Of a DNA stretch of 64,000 bases, positions 35,485-41,887 are shown piece by piece. A model generated the notes under the pieces. That model did no database searches, was not told the origin of the DNA, and saw only the letters and a list, made by a program, of their open reading frames with translations. Position numbers and translations under genes: made by a program. Origin of the DNA: a phage; the sequence record PX418213.1; one strand, given 5' to 3'. Each line of letters starts with the position of its first letter. The first letter of the stretch is position 1.

Positions 35485-35513
35485 ATTATATTAGAAATTT
35501 AGCTTCATAGCAA
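35485..35513 (-). promoter_or_regulatory. T5-type promoter upstream of tRNA-Ser(GCT)
   Basis: TTGCTA, 17 bp, TATAAT. Confidence 0.6.
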
Positions 35514-36060
35514 GAAAATTTTTCAAGTTTTCGGTAGACATCTCATCCATATCTACGGGAGAAACAAAGCCGTTTAATTTTCTAGCAAATTTTTCACCTG
35601 CAGGGTCATTATCCCCAACAGCTACCAATTTAAAAGGTAGTAATTTCAGTTGCTTTAATAATGCTTTTCCTGGAGAAGAACCCAACATTGCCAGGGCTGG
35701 ATAACCAGCGTTATGTAGCGCCACTGCCTTAAATACAGACTCAGCAATCAATACTACTTTTTCATCTCCATTGAGAGTTTCTAGTCCCCATACACACTGG
35801 GTAGTAGAATAAGTAAAATATTTAGCTTCAAAGGGGCACTTACCATGACCTTTTGGAGCAGAAGGATTATAAGTTTGATAGCCCCTCAACATCCCAGAGA
35901 AGTCATACAACGGGACTGTTAGCCATCCTTCCGGACTTAACCAGCAATGATATTTATCTGTATCAAATCCTCTAGATAAGAGGTGCTGTGTTAGCTCATC
36001 AACATTCATATTTGGTTCCTCTCTCAAATTTATAGATATATTATACTGAGAATTTAGCAT
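35491..36060 (-). CDS. Toprim-domain protein (primase-like fragment)
   Basis: VLIAESVFKAVAL...VAVGDNDPAGEKF resembles DnaG-type Toprim E...DxD motifs; only 189 aa. Confidence 0.55.
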   Translation of the reverse strand: MLNSQYNISINLREEPNMNVDELTQHLLSRGFDTDKYHCWLSPEGWLTVPLYDFSGMLRGYQTYNPSAPKGHGKCPFEAKYFTYSTTQCVWGLETLNGDEKVVLIAESVFKAVALHNAGYPALAMLGSSPGKALLKQLKLLPFKLVAVGDNDPAGEKFARKLNGFVSPVDMDEMSTENLKNFLAMKLNF

Positions 36061-36265: not shown

Positions 36266-37261
36266 GTGTCAAAAATGACAGAAGAAGTAGCTAAGAGTCC
36301 TGAGACCGTCGCTAGCGTTGCAGCAGAACTGCACCGTCACGAGGAATCAGATAAGAAAAAGTGGGAGAAGGTCAGAGCCTACGAAGAAAAACATCGTGAA
36401 CACGATGATGAAGAAGATGACGATGATGAACATTGTCATAAATATGGAAAACATAAAATGCAAGAACCAGTAAACGTATTTACTAGTGGCTTCCCTGGCC
36501 TACTGGGTGGTTACCCAGCAAACGCAGGTGCTTTCGGTGGTGAAGGTATGGGACTATTCGGAGCTATCCTAATCGGTGCTCTATTAACAGGCGGATTCGG
36601 TGGATTCGGTGGATTCGGTGGACGTGGTATAGTTGGTGAAGGTACCGCAGTTGATGCAGTACTTCAGAACCAAGATACCGCTAGTATTCTAGCAGCTATT
36701 AACACTACTCGTACAGAAGCTAATCAGGGTACTGGGGCTGTTTTAAGCGCAGTTAACAATGGTTTTAGCCAGACATCCCAAAACCAGAGCCGTGATACTC
36801 AGTCTGTACTAACTACGATCTATGGTACAGGTGCTAATCTGTCTAATCAGATCTGCCAGGAAACTCGCAATGTTATTCAGGGTCAGTTCGATCTTTCTCG
36901 CCAGATTGATCAATCTTTCGCAGCTAATCAGATAGCTCGTGCACAAGATAAGTTTGATTCTGCACAGATCGCTTTCCAGCAGACTTTACAAACTAATAAC
37001 CAGTTTGCCGCTGTTCAGGCTCAGATGTGTGCTAACCAGAACTCTCTGGAACGTCAGATCGCTGAATGTTGCTGTGAACTTCAGACTGCGATCGCTGGTG
37101 TAACTACTGCGCGTATCCAGGATGAGTTAGACGCATGTCGCCTACGTGAAGCAATCGCTGCGGGTAGCGGTGCTAACGGTCAGGTAATTAATCAAATCGC
37201 TTTAAGTCTTGGTGCTATCACTCAGACTCTGGCTGGTCTGCAGGCTAAACTGCCGGCTTAA
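36266..37261 (+). CDS. glycine-zipper membrane protein with Q/N-rich coiled-coil-like tail
   Basis: 331 aa; His/acid-rich N-terminus (HREHDDEEDDDDEHCH); GLFGAILIGALLTGGFGGFGGFGG; long Q/N/S/T-rich region with ECCCE. Confidence 0.6.
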   Translation: MSKMTEEVAKSPETVASVAAELHRHEESDKKKWEKVRAYEEKHREHDDEEDDDDEHCHKYGKHKMQEPVNVFTSGFPGLLGGYPANAGAFGGEGMGLFGAILIGALLTGGFGGFGGFGGRGIVGEGTAVDAVLQNQDTASILAAINTTRTEANQGTGAVLSAVNNGFSQTSQNQSRDTQSVLTTIYGTGANLSNQICQETRNVIQGQFDLSRQIDQSFAANQIARAQDKFDSAQIAFQQTLQTNNQFAAVQAQMCANQNSLERQIAECCCELQTAIAGVTTARIQDELDACRLREAIAAGSGANGQVINQIALSLGAITQTLAGLQAKLPA

Positions 37262-37282: not shown

Positions 37283-37699
37283 ATGAGTAAATATGGTTTT
37301 GTAAATAACGGACTTAATCAAAGTATGGGCTCCCAGCAGCCCGTTCCGGGTCTGGATAACCCCTACTTACAACAGTTGCAACAGCGTTTAGCAGAAGCGC
37401 AACAGATGCAGCAACAACTCCAGCAAAACCCTGGAAGTGTAAGTCCTATGCAAATGATGCAGCAAATGAGCGGGCAGTCGCAAATGTCTCAACAAATGCA
37501 GCAACAGATGCCGCAGCAGCAAGTTCAACAACAAACCCAACAACCGCAGGTTTCTGCGGAAGGACAGGCAGTACTAGCCCTTTTCGAAGACTTCGCAAAG
37601 ACAGAGGATGGGAAACAGCTTGTATCACTTATGGGTAAGTTTAATAGCTTCTGCCAAAGCCAAGTTGCAAAAGCTCAAAATGGTGGTAATAACTCCTAA
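37283..37699 (+). CDS. Gln/Met-rich low-complexity protein
   Basis: 138 aa; central QQLQQRLAEAQQMQQQLQQ...QQMQQQMPQQQVQQQTQQPQ; GGAGG RBS. Confidence 0.55.
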   Translation: MSKYGFVNNGLNQSMGSQQPVPGLDNPYLQQLQQRLAEAQQMQQQLQQNPGSVSPMQMMQQMSGQSQMSQQMQQQMPQQQVQQQTQQPQVSAEGQAVLALFEDFAKTEDGKQLVSLMGKFNSFCQSQVAKAQNGGNNS

Positions 37700-37708
37700 G
37701 GAGAAATT

Positions 37709-37903
37709 ATGTGTTGCAGAAAATCTGTTTCGTGCTGCCCAATGCCTGTAGCACGTTGTTGCTCTCCAGCAATGTTTACGCAAATACCGGCGTTCAATCC
37801 GTTTGCCTTTAAGCCTACTCTTATCCTGCCCCCTAGAGTGGATTTTCAGTCAAGATTGGCCTCCCGTATGGGTGGTTGCTGTACACCGAGAGTGTGGTTC
37901 TAA
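37709..37903 (+). CDS. small Cys-doublet-rich peptide
   Basis: 64 aa with four CC doublets (MCCRKSVSCCPMPVARCC...GGCC); AGGAGA RBS; followed by terminator. Confidence 0.45.
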   Translation: MCCRKSVSCCPMPVARCCSPAMFTQIPAFNPFAFKPTLILPPRVDFQSRLASRMGGCCTPRVWF

Positions 37904-37913
37904 ACCAAAAACA

Positions 37914-37950
37914 AAAGCCCCTGCCGAAAGGTAAGGGGCTTTTTCTTTTG
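37914..37950 (+). terminator. rho-independent terminator
   Basis: AGCCCCT...AGGGGCT hairpin followed by TTTTTCTTTT. Confidence 0.65.
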
Positions 37951-37959
37951 CCTTAAATA

Positions 37960-37994
37960 CAGAAAAGCCCGCGCTCTCGGAGGAAACGCGGGCT
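37960..37994 (-). terminator. rho-independent terminator for SPFH gene
   Basis: GCCCGCG...CGCGGGC hairpin with U-run on minus strand. Confidence 0.6.
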
Positions 37995-38018
37995 TGGTTC
38001 GAAGATTACGTGTAACTA

Positions 38019-38966
38019 TTACTTGTTACGCATATCCATGATCATTTGACCATCGTAGCCAGTACCTACCACAGTCTGAGGTACACCACCTTGATATTTC
38101 TGAGCACGAATCATCTCAACTTCCAGTTGTTTCCAACGAATCATCTCAGGAGTAATAGTACGTTGCAATGCGGCGTTAGCTTCAGCTTCTTTCTTAGCTG
38201 CGTACAGTTTAGCATCTGCGTCACGTTCATTAGCAATAGCTTGGTTGTTGCGAGCTTCACGATCTGCTTCTGCTTGTTTAACCTTCTGCTGTGCTTCTTG
38301 TTCAACACGAGCCAGTTCAGCTTTTGCAGCATTAACTTGCTCTTCACGAACTTTGGTATTCTGTACCTGCTCCATGATTACCGGTGGCAAAGTAATATCC
38401 TGAAGGAACACCTGCTTAACTGTGTAACCATATGGGCGTGCATACTCTTCAACTTCCTGTTGAATTGCAGTTTGCAATTGAGCCTGAATTTTAGCATCAA
38501 ACAAATCTTGTGCTTTAGGTACAGACTTACCAAACTCACGAATAGTAGACAGTAATTTTTCAGTTACATATTTGTCTAACGCTTGATCCTGAGTACCTGC
38601 ATTAATACGGTTAATCGGTGCCTTAGAACCATCAAACTGCAACATAACAGTCAGGTCAACAGTGGATTTAAACTTATCCTGACTAGGAACCTGAAGTTTA
38701 TCTAATTTTAGAGCAATATCTTTTGTACTAAAAGTATCGAAAGAAGCAAAAGGATTTACAATATGAAAGCCGGGTAATACTGGATTAGGGTCTACTTTAC
38801 CCAGGAAAGTCTGGGTTTTAACAGTACCGTCTTGAACAACAGTATAGGAGTTAAGGGCCAGAACTAAACCTACCAAACCAACTGCAGCACCAATACCCCA
38901 ACGTTTGATATTACGCATCAATTTTTGCTCATAAGTCAGTTCTTTAGTGTTTTTAGTAGCAAACAT
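38019..38966 (-). CDS. SPFH/band-7 (prohibitin/HflKC-like) membrane protein
   Basis: 315 aa; N-terminal TM (WGIGAAVGLVGLVLAL); band-7-like core; C-terminal coiled coil. Confidence 0.65.
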   Translation of the reverse strand: MFATKNTKELTYEQKLMRNIKRWGIGAAVGLVGLVLALNSYTVVQDGTVKTQTFLGKVDPNPVLPGFHIVNPFASFDTFSTKDIALKLDKLQVPSQDKFKSTVDLTVMLQFDGSKAPINRINAGTQDQALDKYVTEKLLSTIREFGKSVPKAQDLFDAKIQAQLQTAIQQEVEEYARPYGYTVKQVFLQDITLPPVIMEQVQNTKVREEQVNAAKAELARVEQEAQQKVKQAEADREARNNQAIANERDADAKLYAAKKEAEANAALQRTITPEMIRWKQLEVEMIRAQKYQGGVPQTVVGTGYDGQMIMDMRNK

Positions 38967-39000
38967 ATATTTCCTTTGTTTTAGTTACAGTTAATAAAAT

Positions 39001-39075
39001 TGGCCGAGGTGACAGGATTCGAACCTGCATAAAGGAATTTAGAAGACTCCTGCCTCTCCCTTAGACTACACCCCG
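39001..39075 (-). tRNA. tRNA-Arg (TCT)
   Basis: acceptor CGGGGTG/CACCTCG; anticodon arm GGAGT-CTTCTAA-ATTCC. Confidence 0.7.
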
Positions 39076-39083
39076 AAATTTAG

Positions 39084-39584
39084 TTATTTAATCAGATTAG
39101 CTTGACTTTCCACTGCTTCTGTAGCAGCTTTCTCAGCAATTCTAGCAGCTCGATTTGTCCTAGCTTTAGCAATTATCTTTTTATATTGTTCATCTATTAG
39201 ATCTTCTATCTCGTCATAGAATCTACATTGGTCTAGATAATTTATTGCATCAACATTATAAAGTTTTATATGTAATGCAGAGCTACGACCACCTTTCAAT
39301 GTGCTTTCTAAGATCTGTGGACGATAACGTCTAAGAGTATCTTTTGCCTTTTTAACTTCACCAGTTTCTTCTCCTAATTGGATTAGGTGATAAAGTCGGG
39401 TGTTATCAACGTAGTGCAGTTCAACACTGTGATATTCACCTTCACGAAGATTAAATCCGGTGAGTTTACTCATCTTTTCCTGTGCTTGTTCCAGTGTAAG
39501 CCGCTCCGTAAAATGAACTACGTACAGGATATGAGGACAACACATCTCTTGATGATCAAATATACAAGTAGTTCCTAGATTCAT
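39084..39584 (-). CDS. hypothetical protein
   Basis: 166-aa ORF. Confidence 0.5.
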   Translation of the reverse strand: MNLGTTCIFDHQEMCCPHILYVVHFTERLTLEQAQEKMSKLTGFNLREGEYHSVELHYVDNTRLYHLIQLGEETGEVKKAKDTLRRYRPQILESTLKGGRSSALHIKLYNVDAINYLDQCRFYDEIEDLIDEQYKKIIAKARTNRAARIAEKAATEAVESQANLIK

Positions 39585-39599
39585 AGATATATTTCCTAT

Positions 39600-40396
39600 T
39601 CTAAGTATTTTTAAGAATTCTCATAAAAACTCTTAAAAATACAGACGATACCGGGAGAGTCATAAGTCTCACTCATTAAGTATTTCAAGACAAAATACGG
39701 TAACGTCTATTATTTTCCAGTTTAAGTCAGGGTGACTTAGTGGTTATGTCCTGCGGTATATTGAGGACTCGGTTAGGCTTGGGGTCATGACTTCCCACCT
39801 TTTGCTGCTACTCAACAGGAGTTATCGCGAATTACCTGTGCTATTGTGCACCATTAGTGACATCTCTCATGTCAGCATTTCCCACTTTGTGGATAGCTTG
39901 AAAAACTACTCCGATATGGAGAAAGAACTTCACTATCCTAGAATACCTTCTAAAGTTCTTCTTTAGCCTGGACATAGTTAAATCGTAATAAAACTATTCA
40001 GCAGACTGGTTGGTTAGTCTGGAACCAACTACCGCGTGGTTTAGGCAGTGCGCAACTAACCTCGGAAGCTTTTACGTTAAAAGCACCAGTTATCCAGTTC
40101 TTACCGACCGTAGGATTCGAACCTACATCTTCCACCAGTTACGACTTGATAATACCAATTATACTAGGACGGCAGTGTTACTACATAAGTGATTTCCACA
40201 CCCCACTATTTATAAATTAGAGAAGAGTTTAGGGGAGAGGTTTCAGACGCCTCATTTTACACGTTCTAGCCACTAACCGGGATTGCCGCCCCCTGTGTAC
40301 TAGTTTTACAACTAACCCACCGACTCTATTCAATGCGCTCCGCTTGGGATTCTGCACTCAGCGTAATCGGCTCGCTGTTCCCTAATTTATGAATAT
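39600..40396 (-). ncRNA. about 800-nt non-coding transcribed region with degenerate tRNA-like element
   Basis: no ORF of 60 aa or more; lies between promoter 40397-40425 and gene 39084-39584; T-loop GGTTCGAATCC at 40113-40123 with imperfect acceptor. Confidence 0.3.
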
Positions 40397-40425
40397 ATTA
40401 TACAGAATTTATAAGCATTTAGCAA
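40397..40425 (-). promoter_or_regulatory. T5-type strong sigma70 promoter
   Basis: TTGCTA, 17 bp, TATAAT. Confidence 0.6.
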
Positions 40426-41115: not shown

Positions 41116-41565
41116 TTAAGTTTTAGTGACAACAGGTTTATAGAATGTATGTCCCTTAATCTTAGTTGTTTTCTTAAATTTCTTTGTCCAGTAAGGTTTA
41201 TCTTTACCACTATGGAAGTATAGTGCTCCATGTGTAGGATCTTGTGGTAAATCAACGTAGTATATCACTCTAGCTAAATTCTTAGCGGTTTGCCAAGCCT
41301 CATCAGTTTTATCAACTTTTGGTCTCTTAGATACCCAAGAGAACTGGTTAGACTGATATACTACTTTACAGTAGGAATCTGGGAATTTACCGGAGTTTAC
41401 ACGGTTTTTAGTAACATGTGCAATCGCCGTCATTCCCTTTATGCCCTCACCACGACTTTCGAAATAGATATTTTTAGCAATGCAATCTATTTCTTTTGCA
41501 TCGTGCGATGCCTGACTACTAAAGCTGAAGGTAAGGGCAGCTACTAAAAGCAAAGCTGCCTTCAT
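41116..41565 (-). CDS. secreted SleB-like cell-wall hydrolase
   Basis: start moved to Met with AGGAG RBS; signal peptide MKAALLLVAALTFSFSSQA; core ...NIYFESRGE...AIAHVTKNR... Confidence 0.6.
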   Translation of the reverse strand: MKAALLLVAALTFSFSSQASHDAKEIDCIAKNIYFESRGEGIKGMTAIAHVTKNRVNSGKFPDSYCKVVYQSNQFSWVSKRPKVDKTDEAWQTAKNLARVIYYVDLPQDPTHGALYFHSGKDKPYWTKKFKKTTKIKGHTFYKPVVTKT

Positions 41566-41569
41566 TCTT

Positions 41570-41887
41570 TTACTCCTGCCAATCATATTCAACACGATTG
41601 GGATTTTCTTTATACCCTAAGTCAAGCAAATCATTACGCATATTTTGCTTAGCTACTGGGTTCGAGGTTACTAGTACCACTTTCTTTGGTCTCTGCCCAA
41701 ATTCTAAGAGTAAACGAAGAATTTGATAACCTTCCATACCATCTACAGCCAAGTCATTATCCATATAAACGAAATGGCCTGTGGTATCAGTTTTATTCAG
41801 AAACTCTACAGCGGCTTCTGGGGTTCGAATGATAATGTCCATTCCGTGAAGATTACGCACATCATCAATCAAAATATGAAAAGTCAT
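41570..41887 (-). CDS. hypothetical protein, possible receiver-like fold
   Basis: 105-aa ORF; domain call is weak. Confidence 0.45.
   Translation of the reverse strand: MTFHILIDDVRNLHGMDIIIRTPEAAVEFLNKTDTTGHFVYMDNDLAVDGMEGYQILRLLLEFGQRPKKVVLVTSNPVAKQNMRNDLLDLGYKENPNRVEYDWQE

Follow-up and report, generated by a model that had tools for sequence, protein, structure and literature searches.

A T5.080-type SPFH protein predicted to form a periplasm-facing cage is encoded by the last cistron of an early stable-RNA operon in T5-like phages

We analyzed a 64,000-nucleotide stretch of phage DNA (sequence record PX418213.1, here called the window), for which a sequence-only reading had proposed a gene for a phage-encoded SPFH/Band-7 membrane protein at positions 38019-38966. 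An open reading frame (ORF) with an ATG start was found at exactly these coordinates on the minus strand. It encodes 315 amino acids (aa) plus a stop codon and is the orthologue of T5.080 of phage T5, and profile, fold, and domain architecture together leave hardly any doubt that its product is an SPFH membrane protein. On balance, we lean towards an explanation in which this T5.080-type protein is made early in infection and forms a periplasm-facing SPFH cage that would condition the host envelope. The domain assignment was published in 2005-2006 and can be read in GenBank annotations; the gene thus represents no new kind of element, and the novelty that the sequence-only reading had implied does not stand. 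Pfam SPFH matches for the homologues in T4-like phages (such as RB43ORF139c, 44RRORF098c, and Aeh1ORF064c) were tabulated in 2006 (PMC1524935), and the annotation of T5.080 in the T5 record cites these same ORFs.

The window comes from a T5-like phage. The 4.5-kb stretch around the SPFH gene matches 455 phage records, with Tequintavirus and Epseptimavirus genomes as the best nucleotide matches (95-98% identity), and the window contains 24 tRNA genes, the same number as T5. The SPFH protein has 95% aa identity to T5.080 of phage T5 (AAS77126) at equal length, and a protein 100% identical to it is encoded by Salmonella phage 5 (AJ604531). A Shine-Dalgarno sequence, AAGGA, is read on the minus strand at 38972-38976, 5 nt 5' of the ATG. 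Profile search, the check on which the sequence-only reading had staked its call, found clear SPFH homology: Pfam Band_7 (PF01145, clan CL0433) matches residues 52-225 with 63.6 bits against a cutoff of 23.6 (E=3.2e-17), and PHROG 200 is matched at E=6e-86. Scans against NCBIfam and PADLOC-DB returned no family and no match, respectively, at E<=0.1, which indicates that the protein belongs to none of the curated bacterial SPFH subfamilies and is not among the known defence components. Among solved structures, only QmcA (E=5e-7, family profile) and prohibitins (2e-4 to 1e-3) were detected by sequence; HflK/C chains gave no match at E<=1 with phmmer and none at E<=0.01 with the family profile. 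The protein is clearly a member of the SPFH superfamily, but the orthologue of no characterised bacterial SPFH protein.

The predicted structure agrees with this assignment over the full length of the chain. An AlphaFold2 monomer model, built on a 33-sequence alignment, has a mean predicted local distance difference test score (pLDDT) of 77, with 251 of the 315 residues at or above 70. It consists of a helix (residues 12-38), an alpha/beta domain (42-192), a 76-residue helix (195-270), a further helix (273-290), and short strands within residues 299-311. Four segments can be placed on the minus strand of the window. The basic N-terminal tail (about aa 1-21), predicted to be cytoplasmic, and the single transmembrane helix (about aa 22-43) are encoded at 38838-38966, as judged from hydropathy and the model. 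The SPFH alpha/beta domain (aa 42-192; 38391-38843) is predicted to be periplasmic and is defined by the Band_7 match, by Foldseek, and by the model, with a pLDDT of about 70-89. Long helices rich in Ala, Glu, Lys, and Gln (aa 195-270 and 273-290 of the model; 38097-38384) are predicted to form the cage wall. The C-terminal segment (aa 291-315; 38022-38096), with the motif GGVPQTVVG...MIMDMR, is a predicted cage cap or oligomerisation element; its modeled strands (299-302 and 308-311) have low pLDDT in the monomer, and the segment is conserved in the family alignment. In that alignment the predicted periplasmic part is highly conserved throughout and the N-terminal tail is variable.

Comparison of the model with the Protein Data Bank (PDB) using Foldseek yielded 64 matches at E<=0.001, the top ones being full-length (260-305 columns) with a probability of 1.00; full-length alignments of this probability were obtained to more than 35 solved SPFH chains. 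The best E values were found for erlin1/2 (1e-13) and prohibitin 1/2 (7e-12), followed by HflK/C chains in FtsH complexes (about 5e-11 to 8e-10), stomatin (9e-11), QmcA (2e-9), and flotillin (6e-8); major vault protein was also matched. All of these top targets are cage-forming SPFH proteins. A second line of evidence comes from the length of the wall helix. Among 134 family members, the spacing between two conserved anchors on either side of the long helix takes only the values 53, 64, 75, or 86 residues, that is, -11, 0, +11, and +22 relative to the modal length. Such a hendecad quantisation, with indels in steps of 11 residues, fits a helix that is packed in a regular multi-subunit wall and can admit whole repeats only. 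Taken together, fold homology and indel quantisation make it likely that the SPFH protein is a cage-forming homo-oligomer.

The closest structural relatives, prohibitins and erlins, resemble the phage protein in having a single N-terminal transmembrane helix and a similar size (about 270-300 aa), as well as in two features that are known for them and predicted for the phage protein, a non-cytoplasmic SPFH domain and cage formation. They differ in being hetero-oligomers (PHB1/2 and erlin1/2) of eukaryotic organelles with other clients, and their identity to the phage protein is 14-19%. The phage protein, with its 315 aa, does not have the architecture of flotillins, which have a long flotillin (EA-repeat) domain after the SPFH domain, about 420-500 aa in all, and a cytoplasm-facing hairpin anchor. 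The Foldseek match to flotillin is partial, with a TM-score by target length of 0.30-0.38, and the predicted topology is opposite.

The orientation in the membrane was predicted from the charges around the only hydrophobic 19-mer of the protein (aa 25-43; mean Kyte-Doolittle hydropathy 1.81). The transmembrane helix is preceded by six K/R against two D/E and followed by two against one. An N-terminal hydrophobic anchor is predicted in 296 of 298 family members, and in 116 of 119 close relatives the net positive charge is greater before than after the transmembrane helix (mean +2.46 versus +0.32). Under the positive-inside rule, these charges predict that the protein is oriented N-in/C-out and that its SPFH domain lies in the periplasm. 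N-in/C-out is also the (type II) orientation of erlin, prohibitin, and HflK/C. In a few relatives (12 of the 298 family members, one of the 119 close ones) a lipobox-like motif replaces the transmembrane helix, which would likewise put the protein outside the cytoplasm. Based on the charge rule and these lipobox variants, the SPFH domain quite probably faces the periplasm.

These data also bear on a name under which the gene is often found. The T5 record annotates T5.080 as [quoted passage not shown], and GenBank entries for T5.080-type genes read "SPFH domain containing protein" in several records and "lipoprotein" in many. The latter is the name of PHROG 200, which many records repeat. We rejected it for the window protein, which contains no cysteine and hence no lipobox and no site for lipidation; given also how rare lipobox-like motifs are among its relatives, there is practically no chance that it is a lipoprotein. 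In practical terms, a widespread annotation derived from PHROG 200 is wrong for this protein.

The best sequence match among solved structures suggests a different orientation. E. coli QmcA, which with YbbJ forms an SPFH-NfeD pair, and the stomatins resemble the phage protein in length and fold, and published work describes the QmcA cage as extending into the cytoplasm. In favour of a cytoplasm-facing stomatin/QmcA-like scaffold, of the same fold but opposite orientation and acting on the cytoplasmic face of the membrane, is the first rank of QmcA among these matches. However, this match is located for the most part in the helical, low-complexity region (profile positions 156-253), a cytoplasmic C-terminal domain would need the opposite charge distribution, and in some relatives the transmembrane helix is replaced by a lipobox. 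Moreover, SPFH-NfeD operons (QmcA-YbbJ, YqiK-YqiJ, and stomatin-NfeD) have an adjacent NfeD gene, whereas no NfeD domain or gene was found in the window flanks, the annotated phage loci, two metagenomic phage lineages, or the annotated bacterial loci. We therefore regard a cytoplasm-facing scaffold as unlikely.

An early stable-RNA/tRNA operon on the minus strand, made up of the promoter P16-17, RNAX, tRNA-Arg, and SPFH, ends with the SPFH gene. The sigma-70 promoter (TTGCTA-17-TATAAT; 40397-40425) scores 10 of 12 matches in a promoter scan, and its sequence is identical to the T5 region that holds the early promoter "P 16-17". It is followed by a transcribed leader (39585-40396) that, by pairwise alignment to the T5 locus, is homologous to the T5 stable RNA "RNAX", with long invariant blocks next to a 147-nt insertion and an 87-nt deletion. 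The tRNA-Arg gene (anticodon TCT; 39001-39075), called by ARAGORN and by Rfam (49.3 bits), has the same arrangement in T5. It ends 34 nt 5' of the SPFH ATG on the same strand, and the promoter scan revealed no promoter-like site between the two.

On the other side, two conserved hairpins (RNA fold z=-4.6) lie 3' of the SPFH stop codon. Hairpin 1 (37962-38000, minus strand) was detected as a terminator-like site of 12 pairs and by RNA folding, and carries the T5 "major nick" consensus GAGA^GCGC. The nick is predicted between 37975 and 37974; the motif aligns base for base to the T5 nick at 39746/39747, annotated there as a "major DNA single-chain interruption" (the 32.6% nick). Compensatory changes in the stem among the window, T5, and K44 indicate that the nick site lies within a conserved structured element. 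The second structure, a bidirectional rho-independent terminator (A-tract, G+C stem, and T-tract; 37899-37957), was identified by RNA folding and aligns to the T5 feature [quoted passage not shown]. It is common to the SPFH unit and to a convergent unit on the plus strand (homologues of T5.077-079). The sequence-only reading had described the gene as flanked by its own terminator and a tRNA. Both elements exist, but the terminator is shared, not the gene's own, and the tRNA is no independent flank but is co-transcribed upstream. An autonomous moron with its own promoter and terminator is not supported, given the promoterless 34-nt gap and the shared bidirectional terminator.

The same gene occupies the same site, between tRNA-Arg/RNAX and the 32.6% nick with its bidirectional terminator, in T5 and in the Markadamsvirinae orthologues. 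At this locus, the window differs from T5 only upstream, in the indels of the RNAX leader and in an extra 166-aa ORF (39084-39584, minus strand; from the ORF list) between the RNAX region and tRNA-Arg. This ORF is present in Salmonella phage Kenya-K44 (K44_067), absent from T5, Stokescottia, and most relatives, and without a match in Pfam, PHROG, or PADLOC. Within the RNAX leader, a tRNA-like element on the minus strand (40102-40173) scores 35.5 bits with the Rfam tRNA model (gathering score 29), and ARAGORN made no call for it. Other records annotate this element as tRNA-Pro(CGG) or "tRNA-OTHER".

The gene is widespread. Using tblastn, we found a homologue of the SPFH protein in 723 phage records, in 671 of which the match covers at least 80% of the protein. 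A copy with at least 90% identity is present in 431 records, compared with 442 that hold the core A1 gene at 80% identity or more, which shows that the SPFH gene is nearly universal in T5-like phages. Copies with 60-83% identity are found in T4-like Straboviridae (RB43, Miller, and Klebsiella, Enterobacter, Cronobacter, and Aeromonas phages), in Grimontviridae (Proteus phage J3S), and in a lineage of phages of about 124-152 kb; Vibrio phages contain more distant ones. The SPFH family spans at least four phage families. An exhaustive profile search showed it to be compact, with 88 clusters (50% identity) at E<=1e-30 and, at the looser threshold of E<=1e-10, 345. Viral SPFH/Band 7 proteins are common in general, from Vibrio, Rhizobium, and Streptomyces phages up to giant viruses.

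Members of the PHROG 200 family at this level of identity (RB43ORF139c, 44RRORF098c, Aeh1ORF064c, Miller gp141, and the protein of Proteus phage J3S) share with the window protein the transmembrane helix, the SPFH domain, the hendecad helix, and the C-terminal motif; their N-terminal tails are not conserved. Their genomic contexts are unrelated: the tk-rI region in T4-like phages, the vicinity of cREC_REC and Hydrolase_2 in Grimontviridae, and a position after Ter genes in another lineage. When the T5-like copy is compared with those of other phage families, saturation is seen at 4-fold synonymous sites (Jukes-Cantor 0.8-1.1), and yet the proteins are 74-78% identical; for the adjacent Hydrolase_2 genes of these lineages, identity is only 27-39%. 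This combination indicates strong purifying selection over a long time. Recent horizontal transfer was considered as the cause of the 75-83% identity between families and was rejected because of the same saturation (Jukes-Cantor ~0.8-1.1).

Despite this conservation, the gene is dispensable in the laboratory. In a transcriptome-wide CRISPRi-ART screen of T5, T5.080 (7 guides), labeled there "Ambiguous, lipoprotein, phrog_200", was classified as "Not Fit", with a fitness of -4.28 and p=0.85 (PMC11879866, supplementary files 8 and 16). In Escherichia phage NG_S8 (LC788711), a viable Epseptimavirus isolate, the SPFH gene has naturally lost a large in-frame segment. The remnant of 55 aa joins residues ~1-15 to ~276-315; the transmembrane helix, the SPFH domain, and the wall helix are gone, and the conserved C-terminal segment is kept. 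The null knock-down and the viable deletion together show that the gene is dispensable for lytic growth in the laboratory, and this dispensability, combined with strong purifying selection, points to a conditional role, be it in host range, stress, competition, or immunity. T5 already offers the knock-down tools and the natural deletion allele for a direct test of such a role. Literature searches on SPFH proteins together with phages or defence yielded only genome-annotation mentions, and no paper text on "T5.080" was found; T5-like data are absent from the HIDEN-SEQ paper. A phage-genomics paper of 2026 states that the reason why a phage genome holds an SPFH gene "remains unclear" (PMC13239085).

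The explanation that we favour combines these features as follows. Host RNA polymerase would transcribe the SPFH gene early in infection, as the final cistron of the P16-17/RNAX/tRNA-Arg transcript. The SPFH protein would be a single-pass protein of the inner membrane, with its short basic N-terminus in the cytoplasm and the SPFH domain, helices, and C-terminal strands in the periplasm. There it would most likely self-assemble into a closed homo-oligomeric dome, as does every structurally solved full-length SPFH protein, with SPFH domains on the membrane, hendecad helices as the wall, and C-terminal strands as the cap. From the periplasm, such a dome would close off a small area of the inner membrane of the host. 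Tentatively, we propose that it serves as an accessory factor of host-envelope conditioning that may corral or stabilize inner-membrane components, for which an FtsH-type client would be the precedent. The benefit might be that the membrane of the infected cell is kept functional under stresses absent from rich laboratory culture. The phage family would represent a compact, single-gene, partner-less version of an SPFH protein, probably periplasm-facing. It bears on the question of how SPFH cages (HflK/C, prohibitin, erlin, stomatin, and flotillin), which have been solved only recently, choose their clients.

Several points weigh against this explanation. Cage formation is extrapolated from a monomer model, and the literature holds no experiment on localisation, topology, oligomeric state, or partners for the phage clade. 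Among distant bacterial members the charge bias is less marked, with more positive charge before the transmembrane helix in only 19 of 53. The best sequence match among solved structures, QmcA, faces the cytoplasm, as Chiba and colleagues are said to have found in 2006. No laboratory phenotype has been seen, so the proposed benefit is unobserved. Finally, no gene neighbour is conserved across all lineages, and the envelope context of the gene is merely suggestive.

The sequence-only reading had suggested a role in FtsH-type proteostasis or in superinfection, which appears weakly motivated in the light of these comparisons. In its FtsH form, the protein would be a modulator of FtsH or a viral mimic of HflK/C, whose cage could surround host FtsH hexamers, or else push HflK/C aside or poison it, and thereby alter the degradation of FtsH substrates in favour of the phage. 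HflKC forms a cage around four FtsH hexamers (PMC13086221), and the phage protein resembles E. coli HflK and HflC in its predicted periplasm-facing type II topology and in its fold, which matches their chains in FtsH complexes over the SPFH domain, wall helix, and C-terminal cap. An FtsH-type client is therefore possible. The idea is weakened by the lack of sequence kinship: identity to HflK/C is about 16-19%, and neither phmmer nor NCBIfam detected a relationship at the thresholds given above. HflK/C are a hetero-pair, whereas the window holds one SPFH gene, flanked by a tRNA, the 166-aa ORF, and convergent low-complexity ORFs, with no K/C pair; its product is shorter than HflK and is devoid of the HflK N-terminal extension. 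No FtsH-related gene was found near the SPFH gene in the window, T5, K44, or Stokescottia loci. In addition, T5 is strictly lytic, and the knock-down caused no fitness defect. A modulator of FtsH thus seems improbable to us.

Gene neighbourhoods were compared in the annotated loci of T5, K44, Stokescottia, Miller, J3S, phiAS4, and Vibrio 5P1c, in two metagenomic phage lineages, and in bacteria, where the flanking ORFs of 61 loci were clustered. No universal partner gene emerged from the phage loci or from the clustered bacterial loci; contexts were specific to lineages and included Hydrolase_2, the rI antiholin, a Ter cluster, and folC. Contexts that point to the envelope, which are suggestive only, differ between lineages: a Hydrolase_2 gene with signal peptide in three, the rI antiholin next to the SPFH gene in a T4-like phage, and the Ter cluster directly upstream in another lineage. 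In the window, the Hydrolase_2 gene (41116-41595, minus strand) is the orthologue of T5.083 and encodes a SleB-like cell-wall hydrolase with an N-terminal signal peptide. This protein is an early secreted peptidoglycan hydrolase, distinct from the lysis endolysin of the phage.

A Hydrolase_2 gene is located no more than about 2.5 kb from the SPFH gene in three lineages (Demerecviridae, Grimontviridae, and P0023), although their hydrolases have diverged to 27-39% identity. In the T4-like phage Miller, the SPFH gene follows the rI antiholin. One could conclude that the protein regulates lysis or cell-wall remodelling, with a cage that organises or restrains the secreted hydrolase, a holin, or an antiholin and thereby tunes the timing of lysis. 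However, the association is absent in an Aeromonas T4-like phage, in a Vibrio phage, and in all chromosomal homologues, the synteny may simply be inherited, and knock-down had no effect on fitness. We consider a lysis regulator very unlikely.

A further possibility, related to the superinfection role mentioned above, is that the periplasmic cage acts as a barrier and shields the inner membrane from DNA injection by superinfecting phages, from pore-forming colicins, or from depolarising effectors of abortive infection (Abi). An early, accessory gene that is not needed in a laboratory strain poor in defences but is strongly conserved in nature has the typical profile of an exclusion or counter-defence factor, and T5-like phages are targeted by the membrane-depolarising Abi system ColIb/ibf (PMC10644984). 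Two contexts fit such a function. In two metagenomic phage contigs (124 kb and 49 kb), TerC, TelA, a vWA-TerF-like gene, and TerD are directly followed by the SPFH gene, with Hydrolase_2 two genes further; in PhiSH19, an SPFH gene adjoins an annotated superinfection-exclusion gene. Both adjacencies, however, come from single lineages, PADLOC gave no match, and the literature offers no experimental link. T5 moreover already has Llp for receptor-level exclusion. Overall, a barrier function is rather unlikely. The Ter genes in the metagenomic contigs are tellurite-resistance/Ter stress genes.

A bolder version assigns the phage protein a role as a counter-defence or exclusion device, in which a virus-encoded, homo-oligomeric periplasmic cage would enclose a specific inner-membrane machine of the host, such as FtsH, a membrane-acting Abi effector, or the channel through which the DNA of rival phages enters. 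As part of the same reading, the module would have been passed between four or more phage families, and Morganella and Providencia would have acquired it as a stand-alone gene on their chromosomes. Taken as a whole, this combination is distinctly unlikely; if true, the protein would be the first viral SPFH cage with a defined function and would offer a one-gene model of client selection.

Cellular relatives of the phage protein belong to the same subfamily, have the same architecture, and are likewise encoded by stand-alone genes without NfeD, in cellular housekeeping neighbourhoods. Many Morganellaceae species contain a homologue of 55-60% identity on their chromosomes. Its flanks are ordinary metabolic and transport genes that differ between Morganella and Providencia, and the copies of these two genera have 90% protein identity with saturated 4-fold synonymous sites. 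Relatives of 33-41% identity occur in housekeeping contexts in Methylophagaceae, Methylococcaceae, and other Gammaproteobacteria. Three Methylophagaceae loci have the gene order truA-trpF-trpB-trpA-accD-folC-SPFH; at the position after folC, E. coli has dedD/cvpA. Neighbour-joining placed the distant chromosomal genes as the outgroup of the tree and the Morganellaceae genes beside P0113, a sequence from a T5-like phage contig with the Hydrolase_2-YqeY-SPFH synteny of the window. This position suggests an exchange between phages and Morganellaceae hosts, which may have occurred in either direction.

The remaining neighbours of the SPFH gene in the window lie beyond the shared terminator. Two convergent low-complexity ORFs on the plus strand (36266-37261 and 37283-37699) correspond to T5.077 and T5.078, their homologues in T5. 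One protein has a high content of Gly/Phe (GFGGFGG) and Gln, and the other is poly-Gln/Met; they match PHROG 8119 and 7894, and their genes lie in a local island where the GC content is 45% and the GC skew is opposite. Both T5 genes were "Not Fit" in the knock-down screen. Further along, on the minus strand, a gene for a Toprim-domain protein (35491-36060) is the orthologue of T5.076, which the CRISPRi-ART annotation table describes as subverting retron-mediated defence and places in the class "Semi-Fit".

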